From Chloroflexota bacterium (lineage in GTDB: Bacteria > Chloroflexota > Dehalococcoidia > E44-bin15), in NCBI GenBank assembly GCA_034189695.1, contig JAXHUA010000141.1:3341-67340 (forward strand): a DNA stretch of 64,000 nt, in the 5' to 3' direction. The first letter of the stretch is position 1; each line of letters begins with the position of its first letter. This document shows positions 33,393 to 52,083 of this stretch, one piece after another. The notes under the pieces are model-generated. The model was not told the origin of the DNA. It saw only the letters and a list, made by a program, of their open reading frames with translations, and made no database searches. Both the position numbers and the translations under genes were made by a program.

Positions 33393-34384
33393 CGGAATCT
33401 ACCTCCCCTGCCCCCCGCCTGGCGCATCGTCCACTGCCGCTTCATGACCGCCTCTCCACCAGCCTCGTCGCGGATTTCGCGGCCGGTGAGCTTCAGGAAG
33501 ACGTCCTCCAGCGTCGGGCGCCTCATGCTTACGCTGCGGATCTCGGTGCTCAGGGTGCTGACCAGCGACGGTATGAACTGCTCCCCGTCCGCAACCTCGA
33601 AGTAGAACCCCTCCCTGTCCTGCTTCGCATCTATGCCGTGCCTCTGGTGGATCTCCTCCATTGCCCGGTCGTCGTCCAGCGTTCTCAGCGTGATGACGTC
33701 ACCGCCTACCTCTCTCTTGAGCGCGTCGGCGGTGTCCAGGGCCACGATCTTGCCGTAGTCGATAATCGCTATGCGGTCGGCGACCTCGGCCTCGTCCATG
33801 TAGTGCGTAGTCAGAAAGATCGTGATATTCTCACGCTCCCGCAGTTCCAAAATGTAGCTCCAGATGTGGTTCCTCGTCTGAGGGTCCAGTCCGAGGGTGG
33901 GCTCGTCCAGGAAAAGAACCCTGGGGTGATGGAGCAGGCCCCTGGCGATCTCCAAGCGCCGCCTCATACCCCCCGAGTAGACCCGTACCTCCTCATGGCG
34001 CCTGTCCCACAGCTCCACCATGCGCAGGACCTCTTCGATGCGTTGCTTGACCACACTCCGGGGCACGCTGTAAACAAATGCGTGGAACCTCAAGTTCTGA
34101 AGAGCGGTGAGCCGGATATCAAGGCTAGGGTCCTGGAACACCAGGCCCAGCGACTGCCGTACCTGGTTTTGCTGGCGCGTTACATCGAATCCGTTCAGCC
34201 TGGCCGTTCCCGAGGTGGGCTTGGTGAGAGTGCACAGTATGTTTATCGTCGTGGTCTTCCCCGCCCCATTGGGGCCCAGAAAGCCGAAGATCTCCCCTTC
34301 TTGGACTTCAAACGATATGCCGTCTACAGCTACAAGCGGGCCAAACCTCTTGACCAGGTGGTCGACCTCGATGATCTTCTTCAT
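33389..34384 (-). CDS. ABC transporter ATP-binding protein (ABC-2 exporter ATPase with C-terminal extension)
   Basis: Walker A GPNGAGKTT, signature LSGGMRRRLEIA, Walker B VLFLDEPT. Start at ATG 34384 with a GGAAG RBS; the ORF tool extends to 34579. Confidence 0.85.
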   Translation of the reverse strand: MKKIIEVDHLVKRFGPLVAVDGISFEVQEGEIFGFLGPNGAGKTTTINILCTLTKPTSGTARLNGFDVTRQQNQVRQSLGLVFQDPSLDIRLTALQNLRFHAFVYSVPRSVVKQRIEEVLRMVELWDRRHEEVRVYSGGMRRRLEIARGLLHHPRVLFLDEPTLGLDPQTRNHIWSYILELRERENITIFLTTHYMDEAEVADRIAIIDYGKIVALDTADALKREVGGDVITLRTLDDDRAMEEIHQRHGIDAKQDREGFYFEVADGEQFIPSLVSTLSTEIRSVSMRRPTLEDVFLKLTGREIRDEAGGEAVMKRQWTMRQAGGRGGRFR

Positions 34385-34874
34385 TGTGCTTCCGCCGGGC
34401 TTCATCGTCCCCATTGTACCACGCCACTGCCTGCGGCGAACATTCCTCACCCGTCGGCGCTGCCCATGCTCAACTCGGTGCACATACTGTGTGCAATCAC
34501 CCCCTTTGCCCTGTGCCATCCGTTGGCCCCCGACCTGCGACCCCCACAAGCATCTGCCCCCTGACATGCCATGCCCCACTCACTGGCCCAGCCCCTCCGG
34601 AACGCTTCCCCATTATGCACGCCGTTGCACCGTGTAATGCAGCATGTTGCGCACCACACCACTCTACTGCCCCTCCACACCATCTGCACCCACCGCGCCA
34701 CAGCCAATGCACTGATTCGCCCTCGACATCACGCGTCGCCAAGTTTTATTCCACCCGAACCCTTATTACTATCGTTACACTTATCTATATACCCTCTGTT
34801 GTATAATGACAGTACAATGACTCTCGAGACTGTGCAGTGACTTTTCTACCGCGATTGGATATGAGGATTGGCTG

Positions 34875-36134
34875 GTGATAGACAGGGCTGAGATTCACGT
34901 CAAGGCAGGCGATGGTGGGAACGGAGCAGTGAGCTTCCGGCGGGAGAAATACGTTCCGTTCGGTGGGCCCGACGGCGGTGATGGCGGCAACGGGGGGAGT
35001 GTGTACCTTGTGGCGAATAGCCAGTTGTCGAGTCTCCACACGCTGTCGAGGAGAAGGCACTGGAAGGCCGAGCGGGGTGGCGACGGTGGTGGCAGGAAGA
35101 TGCATGGGAGGAAGGGAGCGGACCTGATGATTGAGGTGCCAGCCGGTACAGTGGTGTACCGTAGCCAGGATGACGGCACGGAGGAGTTGGCTGACCTGTC
35201 GGAGGATGGCAGGGCGAAGGTGGTAGCTCATGGTGGCCGGGGCGGGCGGGGGAATGCGCGGTTCGCGACTGCCACCAATCAGGCGCCGCGCATAGCGGAG
35301 AAGGGGGACGTGGGAGAGGAAGTACATCTGCTTCTGGATCTGAAGCTCATTGCAGACGTTGGCATAGTCGGCTATCCCAGCGTGGGCAAGTCCACGCTTC
35401 TGGCAGCAGCATCGGCGGCGAGACCGAAAATAGCGGAGTATCCATTCACTACAACTGAGCCGGCACTCGGGGTTGTGGAGGTGGGGCGTGACACGTTTGT
35501 GCTCGCCGAGATACCCGGTCTCATTGAGGGAGCGCACACGGGAGTGGGATTGGGGGACGAGTTCCTACGACATGCAGAGCGGACAAGGGTGTTGATTCAT
35601 CTGGTCGACGGCACGACGACCAGTGTGGTACATGACATCGCCGCGGTCAACCAGGAACTGCAGCTATACAACGAAGCGCTCGGACGCAGGCCGCAGATAC
35701 TTGCTGTGAACAAAATCGACCTGCCTGAGGTTGAAGGGCGCATGCGCGAACTCAGGGAGACTCTTTCGCGCGAAGGGCAGAAGGTGATGTTCGTGTCGGC
35801 GGCAACCGGGAGGGGTGTCGCGGAGCTGATGGCGAAGGCAGCCGAGATGCTGCAGCGGGTGGCGGGCGAATCCACCGCAGCGCCGGCAAAGGTGGTATTG
35901 CAGCCACCAAGCGTGAGGCCGGCCGTTTCGGTTCGGGAAGAGGGGGGTGTGTTTGTGGTATCGTGCGAGGACGCGGAGCGGCTGGTCGCTCGAATGGACC
36001 TGGCCAGCACTGAAGCCCGCTCCTATGTGAGGCGGCAACTGGGGCGACTGGGAGTGGCACAAGCATTGCGGCGGGCTGGTGCGAAGCCCGGGGATCGCAT
36101 CCGTGTGGCCGACACTGAATTGGAGTGGCAGTAG
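34875..36134 (+). CDS. obg: GTPase Obg
   Basis: Glycine-rich Obg fold (GDGGNGAVSFRREK...GGDGGNGG), G-domain GYPSVGKSTLL, and a C-terminal OCT domain; GTG start. Confidence 0.9.
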   Translation: MIDRAEIHVKAGDGGNGAVSFRREKYVPFGGPDGGDGGNGGSVYLVANSQLSSLHTLSRRRHWKAERGGDGGGRKMHGRKGADLMIEVPAGTVVYRSQDDGTEELADLSEDGRAKVVAHGGRGGRGNARFATATNQAPRIAEKGDVGEEVHLLLDLKLIADVGIVGYPSVGKSTLLAAASAARPKIAEYPFTTTEPALGVVEVGRDTFVLAEIPGLIEGAHTGVGLGDEFLRHAERTRVLIHLVDGTTTSVVHDIAAVNQELQLYNEALGRRPQILAVNKIDLPEVEGRMRELRETLSREGQKVMFVSAATGRGVAELMAKAAEMLQRVAGESTAAPAKVVLQPPSVRPAVSVREEGGVFVVSCEDAERLVARMDLASTEARSYVRRQLGRLGVAQALRRAGAKPGDRIRVADTELEWQ

Positions 36135-36739
36135 TGCGCGTTGGAGTGCTTGGGGGAACCTTCGACCCGATTCACAATGGGCACGTGAAGGTCGCCGAGG
36201 AAGCCAGCGAGAAGCTGAGCCTCGCTCGCGTGCTGTTCGTGCCGGCTGGCGAACCGTGGCTCAAGGGCCACAGGATGCTGACAGGCGCCAGCCATCGGCT
36301 GCAAATGGTGAAGCTTGCGGTCGCGCTCGACAAGCGCTTCGAGGTATCGACCGTGGATCTTGACCGAGCCGGGCCGTCATACACCGAGGACACGCTCTCT
36401 GCACTGCAACGCCGGCTTGGAGCAGACGCCGAGCTGTATTTCATCCTGGGCGCTGATGCGCTCAAGGAGTTCGACAAATGGAGGAACCCGCATCGCATTG
36501 TAGCGATGTGCCACCTCGTGGCACTGAAGAGGCCTCGCTGCCCCTTGCCAGACCTGGCGGGTCTGGAGAGCGCAGTGCCGGGCATCTCAGAGCGCACCAT
36601 CGTCCTCGATAATCAGCCCATCGACATAACATCGAGCGATATCCGGAATCGCGTTCAGCAGGGCCTTCCTATAGCTGACCTGGTGCCGCAGCCTGTGGAG
36701 CGATACATTCGGGAATACTGTCTCTACGGGAATACGTAG
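36134..36739 (+). CDS. nadD: nicotinate-nucleotide adenylyltransferase
   Basis: GGTFDPIHNGH (H/T-x-G-H) and the ISSTxIR-like SSDIRNRV motif; the start overlaps the obg stop (TAGTG). Confidence 0.88.
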   Translation: MRVGVLGGTFDPIHNGHVKVAEEASEKLSLARVLFVPAGEPWLKGHRMLTGASHRLQMVKLAVALDKRFEVSTVDLDRAGPSYTEDTLSALQRRLGADAELYFILGADALKEFDKWRNPHRIVAMCHLVALKRPRCPLPDLAGLESAVPGISERTIVLDNQPIDITSSDIRNRVQQGLPIADLVPQPVERYIREYCLYGNT

Positions 36740-36783
36740 ATGGCCGGAGGTGGCCGCGAGGCACCTTGAGCGGCCCGCATGGC

Positions 36784-37194
36784 CTACGTGTCCGGGGGAG
36801 ACGACACTCCGGAGACCGTTGCTGCGAAGCGCAGATAAAGGAGGTACCGCGCCAGTTCCTCTGTCTCCCGGGGGGATGCACTCCGGAGAAGCTCTTCGCT
36901 GCTCAGCGGCGCTGGCGCAGCCAGGGAGGCGTACCAGTCGAACTCTGGAGTGCAGCCAGCCAGTTGCTGAAGTTGTTGCACGGGCACGGCCAGAATCTTC
37001 GAAAGCTCAAGCATGTCACGCTGGCTAGGGCGCCTCGTCCCGCTCTCGAAGCGGGAGACGAGACTTGATGACCTGCGAAGAGACTCGGCCAACTGCAACT
37101 GCGTCATGCCCTGATCATGCCTTCGCCGTCTAATCAACTCTCCACATTGACTCCACTGATTGGTCATGATGAAGTACCTTCCTTGATGCGCCAA
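36784..37194 (-). CDS. XRE-family helix-turn-helix transcriptional regulator
   Basis: HTH_XRE (IRRRRHDQGMTQLQLAESLRRSSSLVSRFESGTRRPS); transcribed divergently from pyrE. Confidence 0.75.
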   Translation of the reverse strand: MAHQGRYFIMTNQWSQCGELIRRRRHDQGMTQLQLAESLRRSSSLVSRFESGTRRPSQRDMLELSKILAVPVQQLQQLAGCTPEFDWYASLAAPAPLSSEELLRSASPRETEELARYLLYLRFAATVSGVSSPPDT

Positions 37195-37214
37195 CTAGCT
37201 ATTCTACAGAGGCA

Positions 37215-37257
37215 TGACAATTTGTCAATGCTTTTACTGTAAGGACTTGACAATCCA
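37215..37257. promoter_or_regulatory. operator-like palindrome TGACAA-T-TTGTCA plus a TTGACAAT half-site in the divergent XRE/pyrE intergenic region
   Basis: A perfect 13-bp palindrome at 37215-37227 and a repeat of TTGACAAT at 37247-37254, within an AT-rich 80-bp region between divergent genes. Confidence 0.5.
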
Positions 37258-37317
37258 TCATCAAACACCGTAGAATTGGCGAGACAGGTTTGCGGGGCAC
37301 AGGTTCGGAGGTGTATA

Positions 37318-37956
37318 ATGGTTGTATCTTCCTTGAGGTGCAACGTGGGCCATGACCGCAGGCGGCTGATCCAAGAGGTGGTGACGGAGCACGCGCTGCT
37401 GCGCGGCGACTTCACTCTGTCATCCGGCGAGCAGTCGGACTACTACTTCGATGGTAAGATGGCGACGACGTTGCCCCAAGCCGCCTACCTCATTGCGCAG
37501 GAGGTATTTGAACTCATCAGGGGACAGGGCATTTCGGCCGTGGGAGGGTTGGCCATCGGGGCGGATCTCATTGTGGCGGCGGTTGCCATCGTCAGCTACC
37601 TGGAAGGCGAACCCATGCCCGCCTTCGTCATAAGGCACCAGGCAAAAGGGCACGGAACCGGGAAGCTGATCGAAGGCCAGTTCCCCAAGGTCAAGGGCGC
37701 GAGGGTAGCAGTAGTTGATGACGTCATGACGAAGGGCGGCTCGGTATTGAAGGGCATAAGGGCTGTGGAAGAGGAAGGCGCGCAAGTCGCGAAGGTCGTC
37801 GTGCTGCTCGACCGGCGCCAAGGGGGAACGGAGAGGCTCCTTGCCGAAGGCTATGATGTGGTGGCGATCCTTCATGGAAGCGAACACGGGGACGTAAGAG
37901 CCAATGAGTGTATGGAAGTTGCGCGACAAGCTACAGGAGGGTCTGCACCAAGATAA
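37318..37956 (+). CDS. pyrE: orotate phosphoribosyltransferase
   Basis: GDFTLSSGEQSDYYFDG, the PRPP-binding VAVVDDVMTKGGS, and conservation relative to E. coli PyrE. The ATG at 37318 follows a GGAGGTG RBS; the ORF tool opens at 37276. Confidence 0.8.
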   Translation: MVVSSLRCNVGHDRRRLIQEVVTEHALLRGDFTLSSGEQSDYYFDGKMATTLPQAAYLIAQEVFELIRGQGISAVGGLAIGADLIVAAVAIVSYLEGEPMPAFVIRHQAKGHGTGKLIEGQFPKVKGARVAVVDDVMTKGGSVLKGIRAVEEEGAQVAKVVVLLDRRQGGTERLLAEGYDVVAILHGSEHGDVRANECMEVARQATGGSAPR

Positions 37957-38236
37957 TCTTTGGAAGCTTGGTTCGCTTGCCCGCGAATTGGCAATGGATG
38001 ATCCGCATCCATTGCCATTCTTTGTCCTTAGCGAGGTGTTCCTCGAGATTGCCCAGCAGTGGGATGAGGTGCCTGTAGTTGCTGAAGTCGCCAGCCAAGT
38101 GAGGTCGTCTGTCCAGGCGCCGCTTGCAGAGGTTCTTGACGGACTGGAGAACGGTATCCCTCAAGACGACCTGTTCGATTGTCTGGAGAGACTTGTATCG
38201 GCATTGCTGTCGGTCCTTCGCGTATCGAACACCTAG
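37904..38236 (+). CDS. hypothetical small acidic protein (lower-GC); start uncertain
   Basis: 110-aa ORF overlapping the pyrE 3' end; an alternative ATG is at 37994; no recognisable domain; local GC is lower than in flanking genes. Confidence 0.3.
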   Translation: MSVWKLRDKLQEGLHQDNLWKLGSLARELAMDDPHPLPFFVLSEVFLEIAQQWDEVPVVAEVASQVRSSVQAPLAEVLDGLENGIPQDDLFDCLERLVSALLSVLRVSNT

Positions 38237-38408
38237 GTTCGTGCCGGGCATCTCAGAGCGCACTATCGTCCTCGACAATCAGCCCATCGACATAACATCG
38301 AGCGGTATCCGCAATCGCGTTGAGCAGGGCCTTCCTATAGCTGACCTGGTGCCGCCAGCTGTGAATGACTACATCGCCAAGCACAGCCTGTACACGCGCT
38401 CACCCTAG
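38237..38408 (+). pseudogene. duplicated 3'-terminal fragment of nadD (about 96% nt identity to 36575-36695)
   Basis: The DNA at 38241-38361 nearly duplicates the nadD 3' end; the translated fragment VPGISERTIVLDNQPIDITSSGIRNRVEQGLPIADLVP matches NadD residues 150-190; there is no N-terminal catalytic part. Confidence 0.8.
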
Positions 38409-38536
38409 CGAGCCCGGCGGGGAGAAGCGCCAGCGGACCCCGTCGTTCCCCATACTCACCCCAGAGAGCCACAATACACACTCCCTATTCCTGTAGTCCC
38501 ATAGCGACCAGTGTGTGCTTTTCAGGTCTCTACCTA

Positions 38537-38565
38537 TTGACAACGAAAGTTAAATATGCTATATC
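38537..38565 (+). promoter_or_regulatory. sigma-70 promoter (TTGACA-17-TATATC) with an approximately 225-nt leader upstream of the giant PAS-GGDEF gene
   Basis: TTGACA at 38537-42, a 17-nt spacer, and TATATC at 38560-65, in an AT-rich stretch; a short uORF (MEYQVPQFG) lies in the leader. Confidence 0.5.
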
Positions 38566-38793
38566 TTATCTGATACTACTTGTTGTTATCATGGAATACC
38601 AGGTGCCTCAATTCGGATGAAGGAGGCAGCGCGAATAAGGGGGAGAGGGAGGTGTTACAGGTATAGCGAGCGGGCGGGAGCTAATGGCCAAGGATGAAGC
38701 TGGCGAGGGGCATGCTGCGGCGTTGGCCGTTGTGTCATCTGGCTGGACAGGCCACACCGCACGGCGGGGCAATGTCCGTTGGAGGGGTCGCGG

Positions 38794-41700
38794 ATGCAGC
38801 ATGACGGCACGAAAAACCGAATAGCGCCTGATCAAAACGGCAAAGACGACAGCCACAGTGCCGACGAGGTGCTGATGCTGTCGCGATGCGCCATGGACCT
38901 GGTGGAGCTGTCGCCAGATGATGACGTTTTCCACTTCATTGGTGAGCGGCTTCTTGAACTGGCCGGGGACTGCTACATTGTCGTGAACTCTTTTGATGAG
39001 GCGACAGGACAATTCTGCCTTCGACACGTGCTCGGTGCGAGGCAGCCAGTGCAGGCGATAGCGAGGGTAATGGGCCGACACCCCGTCGGCCTGTCAGTCC
39101 CCATCCGCAGCGAGGGGCGCCGGGGACTGACAACCGGCAGGCTGGAGCTGGTGCCGGGAGGACTGTATGAGATTGGCGCCGGCAGTATGCCCCGGCGTGT
39201 GTGCAGAGGTATCGAGATGGCACTGGGCGTGGCCCATTGGCATGCCATCGGTTTCGCGTGGCGAGGGCAGCTCTTCGGCAGCGCCATTGTGGCAACGCGC
39301 AAGCCGCCGCCGCCGAGGACAGTCAGGCTTATCGAGGCTTTCATCAAGGAGGCCTCAGTGGCATTGCAGCGCTGGCTGGCCGAAGAGGCCCTGAGGAAGG
39401 CGCATGCAGATTTGGAGCAGCGCGTTGAGGAGCGCACCAGGGAGCTATCCGATGCCGTGTCGCGACTGGAGGCGGAGATCGCGGAGCGCGCCAAGGCGGA
39501 GGAGCAGTTGAAGCGGGAGCGCACCGCCCGTGACGCCATAGTCAGTTTGAACCCCTACGCTATATCGATGTACGACTCTGAGGGGCACTTCACCAGCGGG
39601 AATCAGGCGTTCCAGGAGCTGTTCGGGTCAACGCCGCCCAGTGACTACTCCCTTTTCACCGACCCGATCCTCCTGGCCAACGGCTATCTGGAAGAACTCC
39701 TGAAGCTGAAGAAGGGCGAAGCGGTTCCCCTTCCCGCTGTGTGGTACAACCCGCACTTGGTCAGGGCCGACGTGCCCGATGCCCCGCGCTACGTGCGCGG
39801 CGTGGCATTCCCCATCAAGGGCGGCGGCGACGAGATCCGCGGCATAGTCGCTATGCATGAGGACGTCAGCGAGAGCACGCGTCGCGACGAGGAGTTGCAC
39901 CTGAAAGACTGCGCGCTCGCGGCGTCAATCAATGCCATCGCCCTGGCCGACTCAGATGGAAGGCTGACCTACGTCAATGCGGCGTTCCTGAAGCTGTGGG
40001 GGTACGATGACGACAAGCAGGTCATCGGGCGCCCCTCCAGGGAGTTCTGGCAGGCGAGCAGGAACCTCGCCGGGCATGCCGGGGCGAAGCCCGGCGGATG
40101 GCGCGGCGAGGCGATTGGAGTGAACAGGGAAGGCGCTGCCTTCGTTGTCGAGCTTTCGGCAAGCGTCGTGACTGACGGCGACGGCCAACCCGGCTTCACG
40201 ATGGCCTCGTTCATCGATGTGACGGAACGGAGGCGGCTGGAGGACGTCCTTCGGGAGTCGGAGGAGCTCTCAAGGGGGATGCTCAGCGCAGCCCGCGCCG
40301 CTGTATACATCGTGCAGGACGGCTGTTTCCTGTATGTCAATCCTCAGTTTGAGCAGATAACGGGTCGCGCCATGGCCGAGCTGTCTGGAGCGCATTGTCT
40401 CGAACATGTCCACCCCGACGACAGGAAGGCGGTGAGGCAGAAGGCCGTAGAGCAGCTCAAGGGTCAGAGCACCCCCCCATACGAGTTCAGGTACATGTGC
40501 AAGGACGGCAGGACGCTGCATCTCATGGAGAAGGTGGCGTCCATCATGTACAAGGGGAAGCCCACCACCGTTGGAAGCTTCATGGATGTCACCGACCTGA
40601 AGCGTGCCCAGGACGAACTGTCGCGGAGCGAGGAACGGTATCGCAGCCTCATCGAAACGGCGGGAGCGGGGGTGGCTACGGTGGACCATGAGGGGAGACT
40701 GGCGTTCGTCAACGGCGCTCTCTGCGCCATGGTGGGCCGAGCCGAAGACGAGCTTCTTGGAGAACCCGTGACCGACCTGGTGCATGCTGACGACCGGCCC
40801 AAGATCGCCGGTCTGCTCGGCAAGGTGTCCGGGACACTTCTATCGGGCAGGGTGGTTGAGTTCAGGGCGATTCACCGGGACGGGCATGTAGTATGGTGCC
40901 ACACGTGTCCCACCATGGTCCGGCGGGAGGACGGGACGGCTGGCTTCAACGCCATCATCCATGACGTCACCGAACGGAAGCTGCTTGAGGACCGCTTCAG
41001 GTCGCTCATTGAGCACGCGTTCGACGTGATCGAGATCCTGGACGAGAGTGGCATTATCCAGTACGCGAGCCCGGCGGTGGAGAGCGGGCTGGGGTACAAG
41101 CCCGAGGAGGTGCTGGGGCAGAACGCCCGCGCCTTTCTGCACCCAGATGACGCGGGGAGACTGGGAAGCCTCCTGGCGGAGCTGGTTGAAGACCCTGGGG
41201 GCACCAGCCGCACTCAGTTCAGGTGCCGCCACAAGGACGGGTCGTGGCGCCACCTCGCCGTCGTGGGGCAGAACCATCTTGACGACCCGGCAGTAGCCGG
41301 CATCGTCGTGAACGCCCGGGATATCACGGAAAGCAAGCTGGCTGATGAGGCGGTCAGGCGGAGCCAGAGGGAACTGCTGCAGATTGTCGATGGAAGTTCC
41401 ATTCCCATGTTTGTCGTCAACAGTGAGCATGTTGTCACGCACTGGAACAGGGCGTGCGAGAACCTCACCGGCATGCTCGCGGCGGATGTAGTAGGCACCA
41501 GCGAGCACTGGGCCCCGTTCTACCCTGAGTCACGGCCCCTGATGGCCGATCTGGTAGCCGACAACGTGCCACAGGGCGAGATGGCCGAGCACTACAACGG
41601 CCGGTTCGCTCGCTCCACCCTGGTAGAGGGCGCGTTCGAAGCGGAGGGCTTCTTCCCGAAACTTGGGGAGCAGGGCAAGTGGCTGTACTTCACCGCAGCG

Positions 41701-44700
41701 CCGTTGCGAGACGACGACGGCCACACTGTCGGCGCCATAGAGACGCTGCACGACACCACGGACCGAAGGCGAGCAGAGGAAGACCTCTTCGAGAGCGAGG
41801 AGAAGTACCGGCACCTGTTTGGCAATGCCCAGGCAGCGCTCTACCGGACCAGCGTATCCGACGGCAGGGTCCTTGAGTGCAATGAGGTTTACGCGCGGCT
41901 CCTCGGCTATGACAGCCGCGAGCAGTGCCTCGCCGAGCGCGTCGCATCGCACCACTACTTGGACCACGGCACCCGTGACCGCCTGTTGCGACAACTCCGA
42001 GAACAGGGCGAGATCAGGGACGCCGAGGTCGAGGTCACTCGCCGTGACGGTACACCAGTCTGGTTGAGCTACTCGGCGCGGCTCTACGCCGAGAGAGACT
42101 GCATCGAAGGGGCCGTCATAGACATTACGGAAAGCAAGAAGGCGCAGGAAGCCCTTCGTCTCTCCGAAGAGCGATACCGGCTGCTCATCGAGAATGCCAA
42201 CGAGGCCATCATAGTGGCCCAGGACGGGGCATTCAAGTACGCCAACGCCAAAGCCGGAGAGATGACGGGCCTCTCGCTGGAGGAACTGGCGGCAACACCC
42301 TTCATGGATGTTATCCACCCGGACGACCGCCAGCTGGTGGCCGAGCGTCACATGCGCCGTCTCCAGGGCGAAGAGTTCGAACACGTCTACTCCTTCCGGA
42401 TGGTGGACCGGGAGGGGAACATCAAGTGGGTGCAGATAAACGCAGTGCTGATGGAATGGCAAGGCAGGCCGGCCACTCTGAATCTCCTCACCGACGTCAC
42501 GGAGAAGAAGGAGGCGGAGAACCAGCTGCGCGAGAGCGAAAGCCGCTACCGCCTTCTCGCTGAGAACGTGACCGATGTCATCTGGACGCTGGATGACAAG
42601 CTCAAGTACACGTATCTGAGTCCTTCTGTCGAACGTCTGCTGGGCTTCACCGTTGAGGAGGCCTGTGCCAAGACCCTTGAAGACAGGCTGACGCCGGACT
42701 CGCTGGGAGTGGTGAGGAAGGCGATGGAGGAGGAGTTGCTCAAGGCGGGCCCGCCGTATCGGACGACGTCGACCATGGAACTGGAGCAGTACCGAAAGGA
42801 CGGCTCGACAGTGTGGACTGAGGCCAGCATGACTCTTCTCCGCGACGCGAATGACGAAGTGCAGGGAATGCTGGGCATCACGCGTGACATCAGCGAGCGC
42901 AAGCAGGCCGAGGAGGCGGTGCGTGAGAGCGAGGCGCGCTTCCGGCGGTTTGTAGGGAACGCCCCCGACATCACCTTTCGCTGGTCGGTGGAGGAGGGCC
43001 TCGAGTACGTAAGTGCCAGTGCACTCCGTGTGACAGGCTACACGCCTGAGGAGCTGCTCACCGACCCGGAGCTGGCGGCGGGGATATCCAGGGCCCGCGA
43101 CCTCGACATGGGGCTTGACTACCGCCAGGCAGCCGCGGAGGGACATGCGCTGCCGCCACGGGAGTTTGCCTTCGCGCGGCGCGGTGGCGGCGAGGCGTAT
43201 CTGGAGATACGGGCCGTGCCTCTGGTTGACGGCAGCGGGGAACTTACCGCCTTCGAAGGCATCCTGCGGGACATCACCGAGCGCAAACAGGTCGAGGAAG
43301 CGCTGCGGCGCAGCGAGGAATTCAGTTCAAGCCTGCTGGCGAACGCGCCGAGCGCCATTCTGGTGGTCAATCCGGATAGCTCCATACGCTACGTCAATCC
43401 GGCGTTGGAGGAACTCACTGGCTTCTCCGCAGGTGAACTCATGGGCAGCGGGCCTCCCTACCCCTGGTGGACCGTAGACGCCCTCGAGCGAACGGGGCGA
43501 GACCTGATGGATGCCATCCCGAGGGGCGCTCGAGGGCTCGAGCAGTTGTACCGGAAGAAGAACGGGGAGGACTTCTGGGTCGAGCTCACCGCCGTTCCCA
43601 TCATCGAGACCGACGGAGAGCTGAAGTATCATCTGGTCACCTGGGTCGATATCACCGAGCGCAAGCAGGGAGAGGAAGCGCTGCGGCACTCCGAGTACAA
43701 GTATCGCACCGCCATCGAGTCGGCCAGAGACGGGGTGCTTATCCTCAACCGCGATTGGGTCATCGTTGATGCCAACAGGATGTCCGTCAGCAGCGTGGGC
43801 TACGACTACAAAGAGCAGCTAGTTGGGAGGAGTATCGCCGATGTCGTGGACGACGATACTGCAGGTGGGCTGGGCGAGACGCTGCGGGGGACCCTGGAGA
43901 AACACGGCTACCTGGCGAACCTTGAGGTGACGGCGCGCACCAGGGACGCGAGAAGCTTGCCGGTGCAGGTGAACATCTCACAGGTTCTTGACCGCTGGGG
44001 TGAGCCGACCAGCTACATGGTTGTGGTGAGGGACGTCAGCGAGCGCAAGCGGGCCGAAGAGGCGGCCCAGCGGTACACCAGAAACCTCGAGGCGCTGCAC
44101 GCTATCAGTATTGCTGTGAGCCAGACTTTGGACCTGGACGAGATGCTGGAGAGCGCGCTGGACAAGGTGCTCAAGGTGACCGGGACGGACGCCGGCTACA
44201 TACATCTCTTCGATGCCGAACGCCGGGAGTTGGTGCTTAAGGCGCATCGTGGGTTGTCCGAGCGCTACGTGGCCGCCATTGAGACCATGGGCGTGAGCGA
44301 GGAAGCCATGAAGCGCTGGCACGACGCCTATCCGGAGCCGGCCTTCAGGATGCGGCGCATTCTGAGCGAGCCGTCTTTCGCAGCTGCGAACTCTGCTGGG
44401 CGGGAGGAGAGCATTCACACCAGCGTGGCGGTCCCGCTCTGGTCCAAGTCAGTGATGCACGGGGGACTGACCCTTGTTTCGCATGCGCGTCGTCGGTTCA
44501 AGCCCGAGGAGCTGGAGCTTCTCGAGGCCATCGGCAACGAGATAGCGGTGGGGATTGAGAATGCCAAGCTGTTGGAGAGGACGAAGGAGCTTTCCGCTAC
44601 CGACGAGTTGACCGGCCTGTACAACCGCCGCCAGTTCTTCGAGCTACTGGAAGGCGAGTTGAACCGGATGCACCGCTACGGCGGCTCGTTCACTCTGGCC

Positions 44701-45714
44701 ATGGTGGACCTGGACGAGTTCAAGGAGTACAACGACAGGTTCGGGCACAGCAACGGCGATGCCCTGCTCAGGTCCGTGGCGCAGGCGCTGAGGTCCGAAC
44801 TCAGGAAGCCCGACATGGCGTTTCGCTACGGGGGCGACGAGTTCACCATCATCCTGCCGGAGACAGACGCGGAGAAGGCCAAGGGCATCATCGACCGCCT
44901 GAGGTTGGCCCGGATGGAAGTGCTCCAGACAGACGGCTACACTTCACGCCTTTTCCTCAACTTCAGTGCCGGGATCGCCGAGTTCCCGCAGAATGCCGAG
45001 ACAGCCGATGGCCTGGTGTTCCTGGCTGACACCGCGCTCTATCATTCGAAGAGGGCCGGGGGCAACCGGTCGACGCTGGTGTCGGATTTGGGTGAGCTGG
45101 CGGCAGACGTCGTCGACAGTGCCACTATGGACCAGGTATACGCCCTGGCCGCAACGGTCGACGCGAGAGATCCCCACACCTACGGTCACTCGAAGCGGGT
45201 GGCGACAGTATCCGAGATGATCGGCACGGCGATCGGGCTTCGGCCGAAGCAGATAAGTGACCTGCGGGCCGGGGCGCTTCTTCATGATATCGGCAAGGTG
45301 GGCGTGCCCGACTCGATCCTGACCAAGCCCGATAGGCCTTCGGAGCCTGAGTGGATGATTATTCGCAAGCACCCGGTCGAAGGCGCGAAGATCGTGGGAT
45401 ACGTGAAGGAGCTGGAGGGGCTGGTGCCTCTGATACGGCATCACCACGAGTGGTACGATGGCAGCGGCTACCCCGACGGACTCAGGGGAGAGAAAATACC
45501 TTTGGGTGCTCGAATCATCAGTGTTGCCGACGCGTACGACACAATGACCACGCCGCGCCCTTACCGGCAGGTCGTATCGTCGGACGAGGCCTGTAGGGAG
45601 CTGGAGCGCTGCTCAGGCACTCAGTTCGATCCGCGCCTGGTTAAGGCATTCCAGGCGGCGTTGAAGGAAAAAGCGCAGGTTGAAGCGCGTCAGGCAGAGC
45701 ACTTCCCCCTGTAG
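38794..45714 (+). CDS. giant multi-PAS (about 13 PAS/PAC) - GAF - GGDEF - HD-GYP signalling protein (bifunctional c-di-GMP cyclase/phosphodiesterase candidate)
   Basis: About 2306 aa. Repeated PAS/PAC blocks (SEERYRxL..., ITERKxAEEAL linkers); GAF (LEALHAISIAVSQTLDLDEML); GGDEF with an intact RKPD I-site and a GGDEF motif (FRYGGDEFTII); HD-GYP (HDIGKVGVPD...HHEWYDGSGYPDGL). The ATG at 38794 follows a GGAGGGG RBS; the ORF tool opens at TTG 38779. Confidence 0.85.
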   Translation: MQHDGTKNRIAPDQNGKDDSHSADEVLMLSRCAMDLVELSPDDDVFHFIGERLLELAGDCYIVVNSFDEATGQFCLRHVLGARQPVQAIARVMGRHPVGLSVPIRSEGRRGLTTGRLELVPGGLYEIGAGSMPRRVCRGIEMALGVAHWHAIGFAWRGQLFGSAIVATRKPPPPRTVRLIEAFIKEASVALQRWLAEEALRKAHADLEQRVEERTRELSDAVSRLEAEIAERAKAEEQLKRERTARDAIVSLNPYAISMYDSEGHFTSGNQAFQELFGSTPPSDYSLFTDPILLANGYLEELLKLKKGEAVPLPAVWYNPHLVRADVPDAPRYVRGVAFPIKGGGDEIRGIVAMHEDVSESTRRDEELHLKDCALAASINAIALADSDGRLTYVNAAFLKLWGYDDDKQVIGRPSREFWQASRNLAGHAGAKPGGWRGEAIGVNREGAAFVVELSASVVTDGDGQPGFTMASFIDVTERRRLEDVLRESEELSRGMLSAARAAVYIVQDGCFLYVNPQFEQITGRAMAELSGAHCLEHVHPDDRKAVRQKAVEQLKGQSTPPYEFRYMCKDGRTLHLMEKVASIMYKGKPTTVGSFMDVTDLKRAQDELSRSEERYRSLIETAGAGVATVDHEGRLAFVNGALCAMVGRAEDELLGEPVTDLVHADDRPKIAGLLGKVSGTLLSGRVVEFRAIHRDGHVVWCHTCPTMVRREDGTAGFNAIIHDVTERKLLEDRFRSLIEHAFDVIEILDESGIIQYASPAVESGLGYKPEEVLGQNARAFLHPDDAGRLGSLLAELVEDPGGTSRTQFRCRHKDGSWRHLAVVGQNHLDDPAVAGIVVNARDITESKLADEAVRRSQRELLQIVDGSSIPMFVVNSEHVVTHWNRACENLTGMLAADVVGTSEHWAPFYPESRPLMADLVADNVPQGEMAEHYNGRFARSTLVEGAFEAEGFFPKLGEQGKWLYFTAAPLRDDDGHTVGAIETLHDTTDRRRAEEDLFESEEKYRHLFGNAQAALYRTSVSDGRVLECNEVYARLLGYDSREQCLAERVASHHYLDHGTRDRLLRQLREQGEIRDAEVEVTRRDGTPVWLSYSARLYAERDCIEGAVIDITESKKAQEALRLSEERYRLLIENANEAIIVAQDGAFKYANAKAGEMTGLSLEELAATPFMDVIHPDDRQLVAERHMRRLQGEEFEHVYSFRMVDREGNIKWVQINAVLMEWQGRPATLNLLTDVTEKKEAENQLRESESRYRLLAENVTDVIWTLDDKLKYTYLSPSVERLLGFTVEEACAKTLEDRLTPDSLGVVRKAMEEELLKAGPPYRTTSTMELEQYRKDGSTVWTEASMTLLRDANDEVQGMLGITRDISERKQAEEAVRESEARFRRFVGNAPDITFRWSVEEGLEYVSASALRVTGYTPEELLTDPELAAGISRARDLDMGLDYRQAAAEGHALPPREFAFARRGGGEAYLEIRAVPLVDGSGELTAFEGILRDITERKQVEEALRRSEEFSSSLLANAPSAILVVNPDSSIRYVNPALEELTGFSAGELMGSGPPYPWWTVDALERTGRDLMDAIPRGARGLEQLYRKKNGEDFWVELTAVPIIETDGELKYHLVTWVDITERKQGEEALRHSEYKYRTAIESARDGVLILNRDWVIVDANRMSVSSVGYDYKEQLVGRSIADVVDDDTAGGLGETLRGTLEKHGYLANLEVTARTRDARSLPVQVNISQVLDRWGEPTSYMVVVRDVSERKRAEEAAQRYTRNLEALHAISIAVSQTLDLDEMLESALDKVLKVTGTDAGYIHLFDAERRELVLKAHRGLSERYVAAIETMGVSEEAMKRWHDAYPEPAFRMRRILSEPSFAAANSAGREESIHTSVAVPLWSKSVMHGGLTLVSHARRRFKPEELELLEAIGNEIAVGIENAKLLERTKELSATDELTGLYNRRQFFELLEGELNRMHRYGGSFTLAMVDLDEFKEYNDRFGHSNGDALLRSVAQALRSELRKPDMAFRYGGDEFTIILPETDAEKAKGIIDRLRLARMEVLQTDGYTSRLFLNFSAGIAEFPQNAETADGLVFLADTALYHSKRAGGNRSTLVSDLGELAADVVDSATMDQVYALAATVDARDPHTYGHSKRVATVSEMIGTAIGLRPKQISDLRAGALLHDIGKVGVPDSILTKPDRPSEPEWMIIRKHPVEGAKIVGYVKELEGLVPLIRHHHEWYDGSGYPDGLRGEKIPLGARIISVADAYDTMTTPRPYRQVVSSDEACRELERCSGTQFDPRLVKAFQAALKEKAQVEARQAEHFPL

Positions 45715-45828
45715 GGCGAATCCGTGAAAGCCAGTCATCCGCCAGACAAGCGAACTGAGAGTCACGACGGCTCCGCACACGGGCGGGGGCGGCAGGTGTA
45801 CGGAGCAAAGAGGACTGAGGGACAACCG

Positions 45829-48800
45829 ATGGACGAACTGACGAACACAGGACAGCGAGCTGCCGCATCGGCGGAAACGCATTCCGCTGGGTCGGTGACG
45901 CCGGACGATGGGCTGTACCGCTCTTTTGCCGAGTACGCCTCCGATTTCATCTGGACCATGGACATGAGCCTGCGCTACACCTACGTCAGTCCATCCGTGA
46001 CAAGCCTCCTGGGCTACACTGTCGAGGAGGCGAAGGACCTGAGGCTGGAAGACTTGATGGACCAACAGTACATTGACCTGGCTGCCAGCGTGCTGGCTGA
46101 GGAGTTGTCGGTCCAGCAGACACCTGACCTGGGGAAGTCGCGAACCTTGGAGTCCGAGCTGAAGCGCAAGGATGGTTCGACCGTGTGGGTCGAGTCAAGG
46201 ATGAAGTTCGTGCGAGATGCGAACGGGGAGCGAGTAGGCATCTCGGGGATCTCGCGTGACATAACGGAGCGGAAGCAGGCTCAGCAGAAGATAGAGCACC
46301 TCACACGGTTGTTGCGTGCCATCCGCAATGTCAATCGGCTCATTACGAAAGAGAGGGACCGCGACGCGCTGCTGGAGGCGGCGTGTCGCAATCTCGTTGA
46401 CACCCCGGGCTATGACAGCGCGTGGGTCTGTGTGTTTGGCGAACGTGGACGGCCGGTGTCCGTTGCTCAGGCCGGTCTGGGGGCGTGTTTCGTGCCGATG
46501 GAGGAGTGGCTGGTCGGGGGCAACCTGTCGAGCTGTGGTGAGAAGGCTTCGAAGGGGCCTGGTGTGGTAGTAACCAGGGCCTCGACTCGCGCCTGCGGCG
46601 ATTGCCCGTTGCTCTCCTGTTGTGCCAGCAGCTTGGCTGTGACGACTCGACTGGAGTGCGACGGGAAAGTCTACGGCGTGCTGTCGATCGTAGCCCCCTT
46701 GTGGCTCAAACCAGACACGGAGGAGCGGATGCTGCTCCAGGAGGTGGCGATGGACATCGCCTTCGCTCTCCAGACCATGGAATCGGAGGAGGAGCGCCGG
46801 GGTGCGGAGGAGGCGCTGAAGGAGTCAGAGGAACTCTCCCGGGGCCTGCTGGAGGCGGTGACGGTCGGGACGTACATTGTCCAGGACGGCAAGTTCCAGT
46901 ACGTGAACCCGCGGTTCCAGGAGATAACAGGTTACACCGGGCACGAGCTCCTCGGTACCCAGTCTCTGGACTACGTGCATACCGAGGACAGGGAGACGGT
47001 CCGTGGGAAGGCGATAGACTGTCTCAAGGGCAGGAGCAGTTCGGCCTACGAGTACCGGTACCTGCGCAAGGACGGCGACGTACTGTGGATTCTGGAGAGG
47101 GTGGCATCCATCGTGCATCGGGGGCGCCTGGCTACGGTGGGCAGCTTCATGGACATCACCGAGCGCAAACGCGCAGAGCACGCGCTGCGCGATAGCGAGG
47201 AGAAATACCGCAACCTGGTCGAACGAGCCAACGACGGTATCCTGATCATCCAGGGGGGCATCATCAAGTACGCCAACCAACGGTTGGCCGAGATGGGCGG
47301 GTATACGCTGAGCGACCTGATCGGGGTCCCATTCATCAGCTTCGTCCACCCTGACGAAGTCCGCAATGCGGCCAATCGCTACAAGCGACGGATGGCGGGA
47401 GAGACCCTTGAATCCGTGTACGAGACTGTTCTCAGGCGCAAGGACCGGTCCGACCTCCACGCCGAGATCAATGCCGGGGTGGTCACATACGATGACAGTG
47501 CCGCCGACCTGGTCTTCGTCCGCGACACCACAGAGCGCAGGATGGCTGAGGAGAACGCGCGGCAGTCCGAGATCAAGTATCACACCGCTCTCGAATCGGC
47601 GCGGGACGGTATCATCATAATCGACTCGGACGGCATCGTCGTTGATGTCAATCAAACGTGCCTGGGTGCGTTGGGATGCAACTCCAAAGACGAGGTGGTG
47701 GGGTCCCATGTTGTCGGCCTGCTGGCGCCGGAAACCCAGCGGCAAATGGAGCGGGGACTGCGGGGGAGTCTTGAAAAGACGCTGGTCGAGGGCAAGGGGT
47801 ACGTCACCAATCTCGAACTGGTGGCGCGCTCCGCAGACGGAAGGCAGTTCCCCATTGAGGTGAACGTTTCGCGCCTGAGCGATGAAAGGGGTCAGGGGAG
47901 AGGGAGCGTGATCGTGATTAGAGACATCACGGAGCGCAAGCGCGTGGAGAAGCAGCTCCTCGACCACACGATGCGCCTCGAGGCCCTTCATGCCATAAGC
48001 GCCGCGGTGATCCAGTCGCTCGATCTGGACACCATGCTGAAGAGCGCGCTCGACAAGGTGGTCGAGGTCATCGGAGCGAACGCTGGGTACATACACCTGT
48101 TCGACACTGAAAGCAGGGAACTGGTCCTGAAGGCGCAGCGCGGCCTCTCACAGCGGTACATTGAAGCGATAGGCAGACTCAGCGTGCGTGAGGAGGCGAT
48201 GCAGCGCTGGGCGACATACCCGGAGCCATCGTTCCGACCGGACGGCATCGTCGACCAGTTGGGCGACCGGTCGGTGGGCGCTGCCGACGGGTCCGACATG
48301 CTGCGGATTCTGGTGTCCATACCGCTGTGGTCGAAATCAGGAATGCAGGGGGGCCTTACGCTTGTTGGGAACACGTCGCGCCACTTCCCCCCCGAGGAAC
48401 TCGACCTCCTCAAGGCCATCGGCAACGAGATAGCGGTAGGAATAGAGAACGCCAGATTGCTTGGAAAGACCAAGCAGCTCTCCATAACGGATGAGCTGAC
48501 GGCGCTGCACAATCGCCGCCACTTCTATGAGGTGCTGGAGAACGAGATGAACCGCACCCAGCGCTACGGTCACTCCTTCTCACTGGTGATGGTCGACCTC
48601 GATGGTTTCAAGGAGTACAACGACAAGTACGGCCACACCAACGGTGATACCGTGCTGAGGTCGCTTGCCCAGATGCTCAAATCGTTGCTGAGGAAGAGCG
48701 ACACCGCGTTCCGCTACGGTGGAGATGAGTTCACCATCATTCTCCCTGGTACCGAGGTAGAGAAGGCGAAGAAGATAGTCGACCGGATACGGGACAGATG

Positions 48801-49611
48801 GCCGGAGATACCGAAGGCGGAATCGGCGGCACTGGATAACCCGCTGGGGTTCAGCGCCGGCATCGGCCAGTACCCCGACGATGCCGAAACCGCCGATGGA
48901 CTGATATTCCTCGCCGACACCGCCCTGTATCACTCCAAGAGGACCGGCGGGTACAGGTCAACCGTTGTGTCCGACCTGCCGAGCCTGGCGTTGAAGCATC
49001 ACGACAGAGCCACGCTGGACCACGTGTACGCCCTCTCGGCGACGGTGGACGCCAGGGACCCGTTCACTTACGGCCACTCCGAACGAGTCGCCACGATAGC
49101 GGAGATGATTGGGAGGGCGGCGGGTCTGCCCCCGGAAGAACTCGCCGACCTGGAGTTTGGCGCTCTGCTGCATGACATTGGCAAGGTTGGCGTTCCCGAC
49201 TCGATTCTCACCAAACCCGACAAACTCACTGAAAAGGAGTGGAGGGTGATGCGTAAGCATCCGGGTGAGGGAGCGAAGATAATCGGGCATGTCAAGGAGC
49301 TGGCTTCCGTGGTTCCCATGGTGCGGCACCATCACGAGTGGTACGATGGCAGCGGGTATCCGGACGGGATCAAGGGTGAAGAGATTCCCATCTGCGCTCG
49401 AATCATCAGCATAGCGGACGCCTATGACACCATGACCACGCTGCGTCCCTATCGGGTGCCAATGTCGCAGAGGGCGGCGTTGGAGGAACTGCGGCGCTGC
49501 TCCGGCACTCAGTTTGACCCGGAGCTGGTCGAGCACTTCGCCAGCGTTCTGAGTGAGGCGGATGCCCATGACGCAACGGGGGCGAAGTCGGTGTTCCCAG
49601 CGCGAAAATAG
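45829..49611 (+). CDS. paralogous multi-PAS - Cys-rich GAF-like - PAS - GAF - GGDEF - HD-GYP signalling protein
   Basis: About 1260 aa (1295 aa if the GTG at 45724 is used). The C-terminal 600 aa are highly similar to the upstream gene (LEALHAISAAVIQSLDLDTML, RKSD I-site, FRYGGDEFTIILPG, HDIGKVGVPD...HHEWYDGSGYPDGI). There is a Cys-rich insert (CGDCPLLSCC...LECDG) at about 46380-46700. Confidence 0.85.
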   Translation: MDELTNTGQRAAASAETHSAGSVTPDDGLYRSFAEYASDFIWTMDMSLRYTYVSPSVTSLLGYTVEEAKDLRLEDLMDQQYIDLAASVLAEELSVQQTPDLGKSRTLESELKRKDGSTVWVESRMKFVRDANGERVGISGISRDITERKQAQQKIEHLTRLLRAIRNVNRLITKERDRDALLEAACRNLVDTPGYDSAWVCVFGERGRPVSVAQAGLGACFVPMEEWLVGGNLSSCGEKASKGPGVVVTRASTRACGDCPLLSCCASSLAVTTRLECDGKVYGVLSIVAPLWLKPDTEERMLLQEVAMDIAFALQTMESEEERRGAEEALKESEELSRGLLEAVTVGTYIVQDGKFQYVNPRFQEITGYTGHELLGTQSLDYVHTEDRETVRGKAIDCLKGRSSSAYEYRYLRKDGDVLWILERVASIVHRGRLATVGSFMDITERKRAEHALRDSEEKYRNLVERANDGILIIQGGIIKYANQRLAEMGGYTLSDLIGVPFISFVHPDEVRNAANRYKRRMAGETLESVYETVLRRKDRSDLHAEINAGVVTYDDSAADLVFVRDTTERRMAEENARQSEIKYHTALESARDGIIIIDSDGIVVDVNQTCLGALGCNSKDEVVGSHVVGLLAPETQRQMERGLRGSLEKTLVEGKGYVTNLELVARSADGRQFPIEVNVSRLSDERGQGRGSVIVIRDITERKRVEKQLLDHTMRLEALHAISAAVIQSLDLDTMLKSALDKVVEVIGANAGYIHLFDTESRELVLKAQRGLSQRYIEAIGRLSVREEAMQRWATYPEPSFRPDGIVDQLGDRSVGAADGSDMLRILVSIPLWSKSGMQGGLTLVGNTSRHFPPEELDLLKAIGNEIAVGIENARLLGKTKQLSITDELTALHNRRHFYEVLENEMNRTQRYGHSFSLVMVDLDGFKEYNDKYGHTNGDTVLRSLAQMLKSLLRKSDTAFRYGGDEFTIILPGTEVEKAKKIVDRIRDRWPEIPKAESAALDNPLGFSAGIGQYPDDAETADGLIFLADTALYHSKRTGGYRSTVVSDLPSLALKHHDRATLDHVYALSATVDARDPFTYGHSERVATIAEMIGRAAGLPPEELADLEFGALLHDIGKVGVPDSILTKPDKLTEKEWRVMRKHPGEGAKIIGHVKELASVVPMVRHHHEWYDGSGYPDGIKGEEIPICARIISIADAYDTMTTLRPYRVPMSQRAALEELRRCSGTQFDPELVEHFASVLSEADAHDATGAKSVFPARK

Positions 49612-49649: not shown

Positions 49650-51560
<1,911 letters not shown>

Positions 51561-52082: not shown

Positions 52083-52083
52083 T

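Follow-up and report, generated by a model that had tools for sequence, protein, structure and literature searches.

The prophage e14 and phage 21 insert into the 3′ end of the housekeeping gene icd, supply a replacement 3′ end and leave behind a displaced C-terminal pseudogene (icdC). Deletion between the two icd copies of e14 regenerates a functional chimeric gene (PMC13626634). Cis-mobilizable elements (CIMEs) of streptococci are 1.2–13 kb long, keep their attachment (att) sites in the 3′ ends of rpsI, rpmG, fda, rplL or tRNA genes, and have no recombination genes (PMC7563491). A displacement by homology-facilitated illegitimate recombination (HFIR), leaving orphan 3′ ends, has been proposed for type VI secretion system (T6SS) and Rhs loci (PMC5361080, citing Jackson et al. 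2009 for rhs). In E. coli conjugation experiments, duplications of 109–950 bp resulted from single crossovers with truncated homology (PMC3240628). Here, we describe a nadD locus in a 64-kb stretch of DNA (the window) from an NCBI metagenome-assembled genome (MAG) labelled Chloroflexota bacterium (proteins MDY6918006, MDY6918008 and MDY6918009). The 3′ end of nadD is found there twice, and the 1.55 kb between the copies hold a block of three genes, coding for an XRE-family regulator, PyrE and a small helical protein (ORF110). The locus is probably the scar of a recombination that displaced the 3′ end (the C-terminus) of nadD, and not the footprint of a self-mobile element.

The two copies, R1 and R2, formed a direct repeat of 116 nt with five mismatches in the window alignment (at 36598, 36610, 36639, 36646 and 36656). 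The initial annotation had noticed the direct repeat and its about five mismatches, and gave it a length of 120 nt, which is slightly too long. Identical runs within the repeat measured 33, 28 and 23 nt. A 27-mer taken from it occurred exactly twice in the window, with 0 occurrences expected (100 shuffles), and the repeat spacing equaled the unit length, 1666 nt. Past the 116 nt, the two copies were only ~50% identical at the DNA level, yet both continued as NadD tails, PQPVERYIREYCLYGNT (tailA) behind copy 1 and PPAVNDYIAKHSLYTRSP (tailB) behind copy 2, each followed by a stop codon. TailA continued the nadD frame at the same position as tailB, making the junction in-register.

The intact nadD carried tailA as its replacement 3′ end. 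Its product matched NF000840 over the full length, with 210 bits (cut-off 150), and was identical (P0247) to the NCBI protein MDY6918006.1, which begins three codons later than the 204-aa open reading frame (ORF) called in the window. Copy 2 kept the nadD frame for 55 codons, up to a TAG at 38406–38408, and scored as a nadD C-terminus (NF000840, E = 2e-9), in agreement with its annotation as a displaced C-terminal fragment. Its left edge was sharp, with nadD homology setting in abruptly at 38241, 4 nt past the stop codon of ORF110. The tail could be scored in 114 of the closest NadD homologues; 92 of these were nearer to tailA and 5 nearer to tailB, a signal that rests on ~10 variable residues, too few to fix the direction of the event. 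TailA matched the tail of L162, a relative that has the block, at 10 of 16 residues.

An empty site, in which the nadD 3′ end is joined directly to the downstream sequence, had been predicted for related genomes, and it was found through the protein database and contig look-up. The NadD search led to P0127, a 95% identical protein with the C-terminus ...SSDIRNRVQQGLPIADLVPRAVNDYIAKHSLYTRSP, in which a tailB-type end directly follows the copy-1 repeat. Five contigs, recovered from at least four other metagenomes (L169, ENA ERZ23498358; L170, SRR10072858; L171, ERZ23498365; L172, SRR11241199; L173, SRR10072859) carried obg, nadD with tailB, the intergenic region and the PAS gene, and had no XRE gene, pyrE or ORF110. 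They were overall 96.5–98.6% identical to an in-silico empty version of the window. In L169, positions 1–3290 matched window 33408–36697 at 98.1%, and positions 3168–3879 matched window 38241–38947 at 94.3%. Its gene order was ABC transporter (−) (minus strand), obg, nadD(tailB), intergenic region and the start of the PAS gene. The empty-allele NadD proteins P0127, P0248 and P0249 end in PRAVNDYIAKHSLYTRSP. The displaced tailB is the functional nadD end in genomes without the insert, and the downstream copy in the window is a displaced end of this original type. The duplication was not common to the relatives, and an insertion/deletion of 1,666 bp is segregating at the 3′ end of nadD.

A tandem duplication of 36575–38240, after which most of the second copy was lost and a nadD 3′ remnant stayed, would give direct repeats with a spacing equal to the 1666-nt unit. 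A single duplication followed by drift, however, cannot yield 96% identity over 116 nt and then ~50% over the tails, and tailB is the sole, working nadD end in the empty allele. Contradicted by both the tail divergence and the empty alleles, this explanation is scarcely credible and was rejected.

Another genus offered a second, independent pair of contigs with and without the block, L165 and L082, which shared 84–93% DNA identity. A clean indel of ~1.6 kb (L082 4469–4485 against L165 3540–5141) started 4 nt after the nadD stop codon and had no repeats. The empty allele of L082 held a 14-nt filler, and its flanks were 84% (left) and 93% (right) identical to those of L165. Either the block is dispensable in close relatives of two genera, or a second pyrE lies elsewhere in their genomes. 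No second pyrE was present within the 64-kb window.

Comparison with the five empty alleles resolved the repeat into a mosaic. At all five R1/R2 mismatch sites, copy 1 agreed with every empty allele and copy 2 differed. At sites 36667, 36670 and 36680, the two copies agreed with each other and differed from all empty alleles. Copy 1 is thus itself recombinant, with an empty-type left part (36575–36656) and a block-type right part (36657–36689, 33 nt identical to copy 2). On its left, 34608–36656 had 8 mismatches in 2,049 nt (~0.4%) to the empty haplotype, followed by three within 36667–36680. On the right, the stretch 38241–38664 (R2, tailB and ~300 nt of intergenic region) had 31 fixed differences and small indels, and 38665–39300 only 0–3 differences. 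Because this diverged block of ~2 kb sits between flanks of ≥99.5% identity, the filled allele seems to have spread between lineages by flanking homologous recombination. The five R1/R2 mismatches are most simply read as differences between host haplotypes, and not between an element and its host. Further to the left, window 33408–34579 (ABC transporter ATPase, minus strand) differed by ~4% from L169, mostly at third codon positions. This pattern indicates a further haplotype switch near 34600 and frequent homologous recombination in the population.

The junction between ORF110 and copy 2 was recovered twice more. L001 (SRR24907504), an independent k=31 Logan contig, was identical to window 36660–38352 and crossed the junction. 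L168, a 540-nt contig (ENA ERZ23498365), was 86% identical to window 38025–38255 and had the same junction (CCTAGCTTCGCGCTTGGCATCTCA in L168 against CCTAGGTTCGTGCCGGGCATCTCA in the window), so the scar would be older than a single strain, whether inherited or transferred. L168 also encodes a 137-aa ORF (P0123), in which an N-terminus resembling region 2 of extracytoplasmic function (ECF) sigma-70 factors is joined in frame to the C-terminal 75 aa of the ORF110 homologue. The switch lies at 24 nt that are the same in the window (CAGCGAGGTGTTCCTCGAGATTGC); they encode LSEVFLEIA, a sequence similar to the ‘QEvFL’ motif of sigma region 2. P0123 may represent either a genuine gene fusion or a chimera of the metagenome assembly.

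The repeat could in principle be an assembly artefact, collapsed or chimeric, such as would result from stitching a separate molecule to an empty chromosome at the common 33-mer. In favour of this, the locus comes from a MAG contig, the Logan unitig ends at the common 33-nt block, a k=31 graph cannot tell an integrated from an excised form, and filled-type and empty-type sequences co-occur in related samples. Against this, the ORF110/R2 junction offers no common k-mer for a false join. The sites that distinguish R1 from R2 lie ≤33 nt apart, so contigs built with k > ~35 should need real k-mers in which R1-left is joined to tailA, and R2-left to tailB. Inside copy 1, neighbouring distinguishing sites are ≤29 nt apart, which suggests that their linkage is present in real k-mers and that an assembler switch is unlikely. 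With the junction seen in the independent assembly L001 and in L168, an artefact is very improbable, and we rejected it.

Gene order around nadD was compared in GTDB species-representative genomes and JGI metagenomes, where the nearest NadD proteins were only 54–59% identical and came from Dehalococcoidia-type MAGs. Among 160 retrieved nadD loci, 88 had obg directly 5′ of nadD, and nearly all those of Chloroflexota/Dehalococcoidia were among them. At least 15 related loci showed obg-nadD-pyrE adjacency (including L002, L003, L008–L010, L014, L016, L027, L086, L088, L089, L097 and L098). L093 and L096 had the order nadD, flavodoxin-like gene, pyrE, gyrB(−). The presence of pyrE at this place, first thought odd, is therefore ordinary: nadD-pyrE adjacency is common in Dehalococcoidia, and nadD...pyrE-gyrB(−) is a conserved backbone. 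This backbone is still recognizable in the window, since gyrB(−) lies at 49650–51557, beyond two giant PAS/GAF-GGDEF-HD genes.

The whole block was found next to nadD in distant relatives, in the order obg-nadD-XRE(−)-phosphoribosyltransferase (PRTase)-ORF107. Protein identities to the window were 58% (Obg), 59% (NadD), 52% (XRE), 59% (PRTase) and 47% (ORF110) in L162/L163, and 63%, 61%, 54%, 52% and 39%, respectively, in L165. In L166/L167 they were 55% (NadD, partial), 54% (XRE), 58% (PRTase) and 56% (ORF110), with Obg outside the covered region. Between the window and L162 or L165, the block proteins were thus 39–59% identical, the same order as for obg/nadD (58–63%). None of these loci had a nadD fragment downstream, and a repeat search for a hidden one in L162 and L163 gave only chance-level matches of 13–19 nt. 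Directly 3′ of the ORF107 homologue, L166/L167 carried gyrB(−); a PAS/GGDEF gene was downstream in L165. The right-hand neighbour of the block differed in each lineage examined, being an IS-like gene, gyrB or a PAS gene. The IS-like gene is a gene start (MAGIARKIEISDEDRETLLKWKRSPTT) at the contig end after ORF107 in L162 (7285–7365), which we take to resemble the N-terminus of an IS630-type transposase.

The block had been described as lower in GC. Its GC content at third codon positions (GC3) was 0.68 for XRE, 0.70 for pyrE and 0.60 for ORF110, compared to 0.69 for obg and 0.74 for nadD. Only ORF110 and the promoter regions dip; XRE and pyrE match obg and nadD and do not look foreign in codon composition, and GC or GC3 is uninformative here as a test of foreignness.

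The locus has the features of a 3′-end displacement: an in-register junction, an abrupt non-homologous junction, the old 3′ end kept downstream in the same orientation, and the donor arrangement in relatives. Downstream of nadD, this group of Chloroflexota has two alternative arrangements (haplotypes), namely F, nadD(tailA)-XRE(−)-pyrE-ORF110, and E, nadD(tailB)-intergenic-PAS/GGDEF. The F arrangement was seen in several distant relatives, and the E arrangement in the five contigs ~98% identical to the window. The window would then be F and E joined head to tail. Junction 1 would be an in-register homologous exchange within nadD at the end of the 116-nt repeat, leaving nadD intact with tailA. 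Junction 2 would be illegitimate, fusing a point 4 nt beyond the ORF110 stop codon to codon 148 of the E-type nadD, by which the E-type 3′ end would survive as a displaced in-frame fragment. Such a structure is known to arise by two routes, either HFIR of linear DNA from a relative, or a Campbell-type single crossover of a circularized fragment with a truncated nadD end. In both cases, the replacement 3′ end would most simply be the piece of donor nadD that supplied the homology, because relatives have the inserted genes as native neighbours of nadD. The conserved DLVP codons of nadD would have been the site of an earlier exchange that made the two haplotypes alike up to that point, as suggested by 116 nt of near-identity beside tails that are ~50% identical. 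The filled allele may have arisen in a sister lineage, where the repeats were perhaps identical, and may then have been imported by double-crossover homologous recombination. RecA-type recombination between the 116-nt repeats could delete the block and regenerate an intact nadD of the tailB type, much as the excision of e14 restores a chimeric icd.

Several points weigh against this reconstruction. An F-only allele, with the block and without the nadD fragment, was not found in the same species, and the merger is deduced from distant relatives. The extra, earlier exchange is needed to explain how 116 nt can be nearly identical next to tails of ~50% identity. The presence and absence of the block at the nadD end in two genera (window/L169 and L165/L082) could mean targeted mobility. 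The right-hand mosaic switch near 38664 could come from strain-chimeric assembly and not from real recombination. The ends at the joint (..AGGTTC and GTGCC..) share 0 nt with the nadD sequence before the repeat (..GCGCA), a check for microhomology that covers one of the two parents. TailB is an atypical tail, which fits an E allele of foreign origin better than a block inserted into a native tailB gene.

The geometry of the duplication fits either haplotype as the recipient. The family-typical tailA and the GC3 of the block, which matches obg/nadD, speak for the block as the older resident, with tailB and the PAS region of outside origin. A different event would have brought in the right-hand side alone: a donor fragment R′-tailB-intergenic-PAS inserted between ORF110 and gyrB of an ancestral nadD-XRE-pyrE-ORF110-gyrB, after which gene conversion from the resident nadD homogenized the 116 nt, with empty alleles produced by deletion between the repeats. 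The backbone nadD...pyrE(-ORF107)-gyrB(−) of L166, L093 and L096 speaks for it, together with the ~11.4 kb that separate ORF110 from gyrB in the window and consist of the nadD fragment and two PAS/GGDEF genes. The outlier status of tailB beside a family-typical tailA and the GC3 of the block point in the same direction. However, the conversion tract must then end exactly at the 5′ edge of the fragment, between initially distant sequences, and L165 has the cassette, the intergenic region and the PAS gene without a nadD fragment. In addition, the empty alleles are 7–8% different from the R2-tailB-intergenic stretch of the window, so that they are not recent deletion products. Overall, we consider this course of events unlikely.

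The initial annotation had suggested a decayed integrative element at an att site of the tRNA/tmRNA type. Three features of integrative elements were present, as direct repeats flank the unit, nadD is restored to full length and close relatives have the empty site. Two others failed, a recombinase inside the unit and a cargo foreign to the neighbourhood. Within the unit, Pfam, NCBIfam and PADLOC found only the HTH and pyrE genes. No integrase or transposase was detected among the scanned window ORFs of at least 200 aa, several of which, at 52–58 kb, had no Pfam match; shorter ORFs were not scanned. With ARAGORN, neither a tRNA nor a tmRNA gene was detected in the window, IMG/VR held no relatives of XRE or ORF110, and no integrative and conjugative element (ICE), integrative and mobilizable element (IME), integrase or relaxase was seen in the window or in the related loci examined. 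With no recombinase in the unit or among the scanned ORFs, no tRNA and no viral relatives, and with the block adjoining nadD repeat-free in L162, L165 and L166, the suggestion is not supported.

A non-autonomous version of it would be a CIME-like unit or decayed island, with the 116-nt nadD segments as attL and attR, an integrase acting in trans or lost, and the unit carrying its own nadD 3′ end within attP, in the manner of e14 and phage 21 at icd. Besides the repeats, the restored gene and the empty site, such a unit would explain why the ORF110/repeat junction is kept in L168, as expected of a permanent part of attP, and why, in two genera, some nadD ends have the unit and others do not. 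In size, it fits the classical CIME range (PMC7563491), it has att-type repeats without any recombination or conjugation genes, and a phage portal gene and unannotated ORFs at 52–63 kb make a recombinase in trans conceivable. On the other hand, the cargo is a syntenic chromosomal block, pyrE occupies its ancestral slot between nadD and gyrB, and the codon composition is not foreign. The L165/L082 indel, 4 nt after the nadD stop codon and without duplication, implies that there is no common att, and the host haplotypes account for the five repeat mismatches. We therefore regard a CIME-like origin as doubtful. A stronger form of it, in which the nadD 3′ end is a dedicated attachment site of a tiny module (XRE-pyrE-ORF110 and its own nadD tail) moved in trans by some recombinase, is improbable. 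If true, presence and absence in two genera would reflect repeated targeted gain and loss, not vertical inheritance and loss, and the module would be a portable, repressor-controlled unit for pyrimidine salvage or consumption of phosphoribosyl pyrophosphate (PRPP).

Compared to the known systems, the locus shares with e14 and phage 21 the insert in the 3′ end of a housekeeping gene, the replacement end and the displaced pseudogene. However, e14, a prophage of 15 kb, encodes its own site-specific integrase and is excised upon SOS induction, whereas the unit here measures 1.55 kb, has no recombinase and carries genes native to the nadD neighbourhood in relatives. CIMEs resemble it as small cargo units with att-type direct repeats at a gene 3′ end and no recombination genes, but they derive from ICEs or IMEs with a common att, and here no cognate element was seen and the cargo is syntenic chromosomal DNA. 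In the C-terminal displacement of Rhs and T6SS loci, as here, a conserved upstream part anchors the exchange, a new 3′ end enters with linked genes, the other end is illegitimate and the old end is orphaned. The target here is a metabolic housekeeping gene and not a polymorphic toxin, and there is a single displacement, not an array, and no evidence of diversifying selection. A Campbell-type single crossover likewise duplicates part of the homologous locus directly around the insert (here 116 nt and a tail); the published case is an experimental plasmid system, and the circular intermediate would be hypothetical here. The canonical Dehalococcoidia arrangement obg-nadD-pyrE also has pyrE downstream of nadD and above the TIGR00336 cut-off. 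The window differs from it by the divergent XRE gene before pyrE, the overlapping ORF110 behind it, the terminal extensions of PyrE, and the dispensability of the block in L082 and L169–L173.

The 3′-end displacement at nadD is of a kind already known. It adds a new instance from a poorly studied phylum and does not overturn current understanding; to a specialist, the locus is tidy rather than surprising, ordinary in kind and cleanly resolved. As a clean natural case from uncultured Chloroflexota, it suggests that the 3′ end of a housekeeping gene can act as homology anchor for the gain or loss of a neighbouring block. Metagenomes yielded both alleles, and the mosaic around them points to the filled allele moving by homologous recombination. 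For annotation, it is a caution that a direct repeat, a duplicated gene end and a regulator can together mimic an integrative element. The features of the locus are listed in Table 1.

Table 1 Features of the nadD locus and its neighbours in the window.
Feature	Position	Strand	Remarks
obg (GTPase ObgE/CgtA)	34875–36134	+	Left neighbour of nadD; Pfam GTP1_OBG, MMR_HSR1, DUF1967
Intact nadD	36134–36739	+	201 aa from GTG 36134; MDY6918006.1; last 16 codons are the replacement tailA
R1, repeat copy 1	36575–36690	+	nadD codons for VPGISERTIVLDNQPIDITSSDIRNRVQQGLPIADLVP
tailA	36691–36739	+	nadD end ..QPVERYIREYCLYGNT, then stop; accompanies the three-gene block; family-typical ‘VERYIxE’ type
Haplotype block with insertion	36657–38664		Alignable parts ~7–8% from the empty haplotype; adjacent flanks ≥99.5% identical
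XRE-family HTH regulator	36784–37167	−	127 aa, best start ATG 37167; Pfam HTH_31 and HTH_3
Divergent promoter/operator region	37201–37276		Promoter scan and palindrome
pyrE-type orotate phosphoribosyltransferase	37318–37956	+	212 aa; MDY6918008.1; Shine–Dalgarno GGAGGTG 5 nt upstream
ORF110	37904–38236	+	Acidic (isoelectric point 4.4), all-helical, 110 aa; first 53 nt shared with the pyrE 3′ end, in a different frame
Putative illegitimate joint (GTTC), block end/repeat copy 2	38237–38240		Abrupt homology start; present in L001 and L168
R2, repeat copy 2	38241–38356	+	Start of the displaced nadD 3′ fragment
tailB	38357–38408	+	Displaced nadD end PPAVNDYIAKHSLYTRSP, then stop; same tail type as the working nadD end in the empty allele
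Intergenic region common to both alleles	38409–38778		Upstream of the PAS-GGDEF-HD-GYP gene
2311-aa PAS/GGDEF/HD-GYP signalling protein	38779–45714	+	Right-hand neighbour in filled and empty alleles; homologues 3′ of nadD or of the cassette in L082 and L165

The gene content of the block was as initially annotated, with a divergent XRE gene, pyrE and a small acidic ORF, and it is a self-contained operon pair. The XRE gene is convergent with nadD and divergent from pyrE. The pyrE product exceeded the NCBIfam cut-off (TIGR00336, 129.6 bits against 106.8) and its translation contained the motifs FTLSSGEQSDYYFDG, KGHGTGKLIEG and VAVVDDVMTKGGS. It has short N- and C-terminal extensions compared to the usual PyrE of Dehalococcoidia (184–187 aa), to which it was 52–58% identical; identity to other XRE-linked PRTases was 59–61%. 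Judged by its sequence, it is most likely an active orotate phosphoribosyltransferase (OPRT). PADLOC assigned no defence system, the PRTase giving only a marginal ShosT match (E 0.0046, 40 residues of the PRPP motif).

No Pfam, NCBIfam or PADLOC match was obtained for ORF110, and only 6 homologues were found among 5.8 billion proteins. Those of L162 and L166 (47–56% identity) show the same overlap with the PRTase 3′ end, and in L165 the homologue is fused in frame to the PRTase. By this conservation, ORF110 is recognizable as a real gene. Its AlphaFold2 (AF2) model (predicted local distance difference test score, pLDDT, 80) is a five-helix bundle, for which Foldseek found no informative fold match in the PDB (best E 0.7). 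Because of the 53-nt overlap and the L165 fusion, pyrE and ORF110 are probably co-transcribed and act together, possibly in physical partnership. Within 36740–38240, there were no other ORFs of at least 40 aa in a plausible frame.

In L165, the PRTase and the ORF110 homologue form a single 311-aa ORF (4112–5047). This PRTase was the fastest-diverging member (52% to the window), and it has VHDTITTG in place of V(D)DV.T.G at the acidic pair that binds PRPP. Its catalytic function may have been changed or lost.

The operator that had been proposed between the divergent genes is real and conserved. Both promoters matched the consensus at 11 of 12 positions, TTGACA-16-TAGAAT on the minus strand for XRE (37228 to 37201) and TTGACA-18-TAGAAT on the plus strand for pyrE (37247–37276). 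The palindrome TGACAATTTGTCA (TGACAA-T-TTGTCA) at 37215–37227 overlaps the −35 hexamer of XRE, and it is kept in the orthologous intergenic regions of L162 (TTGACATTTTGTCAA and TTGACAAAATGTCAA) and L165 (TGACAATTTGTCA). The XRE repressor probably binds this conserved operator; it would recognize TTGACA-N3-TGTCAA overlapping the −35 hexamers and repress both divergent promoters. A pyrE-type gene that has an XRE repressor and a lineage-restricted partner, and that is dispensable in close relatives, raises the modest question of what a second layer of OPRT control is for.

An Rfam search of window 36000–39000 gave no match. Further to the right, a 1295-aa PAS-GAF-GGDEF-HD protein (45724–49611) is encoded in tandem with the 2311-aa one, before gyrB(−). 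The ~11 kb of the two giant signalling genes look like a lineage-specific insertion into the conserved backbone, because gyrB directly follows pyrE/ORF107 in L166, L093 and L096. Near the right end, the window encodes a protein resembling Type ISP restriction-modification enzymes (58466–61681; N6_Mtase and Type_ISP_C) and, on the minus strand, an SPP1-type phage portal protein (61868–63238). The region 52000–64000 may be a prophage or a defence island.

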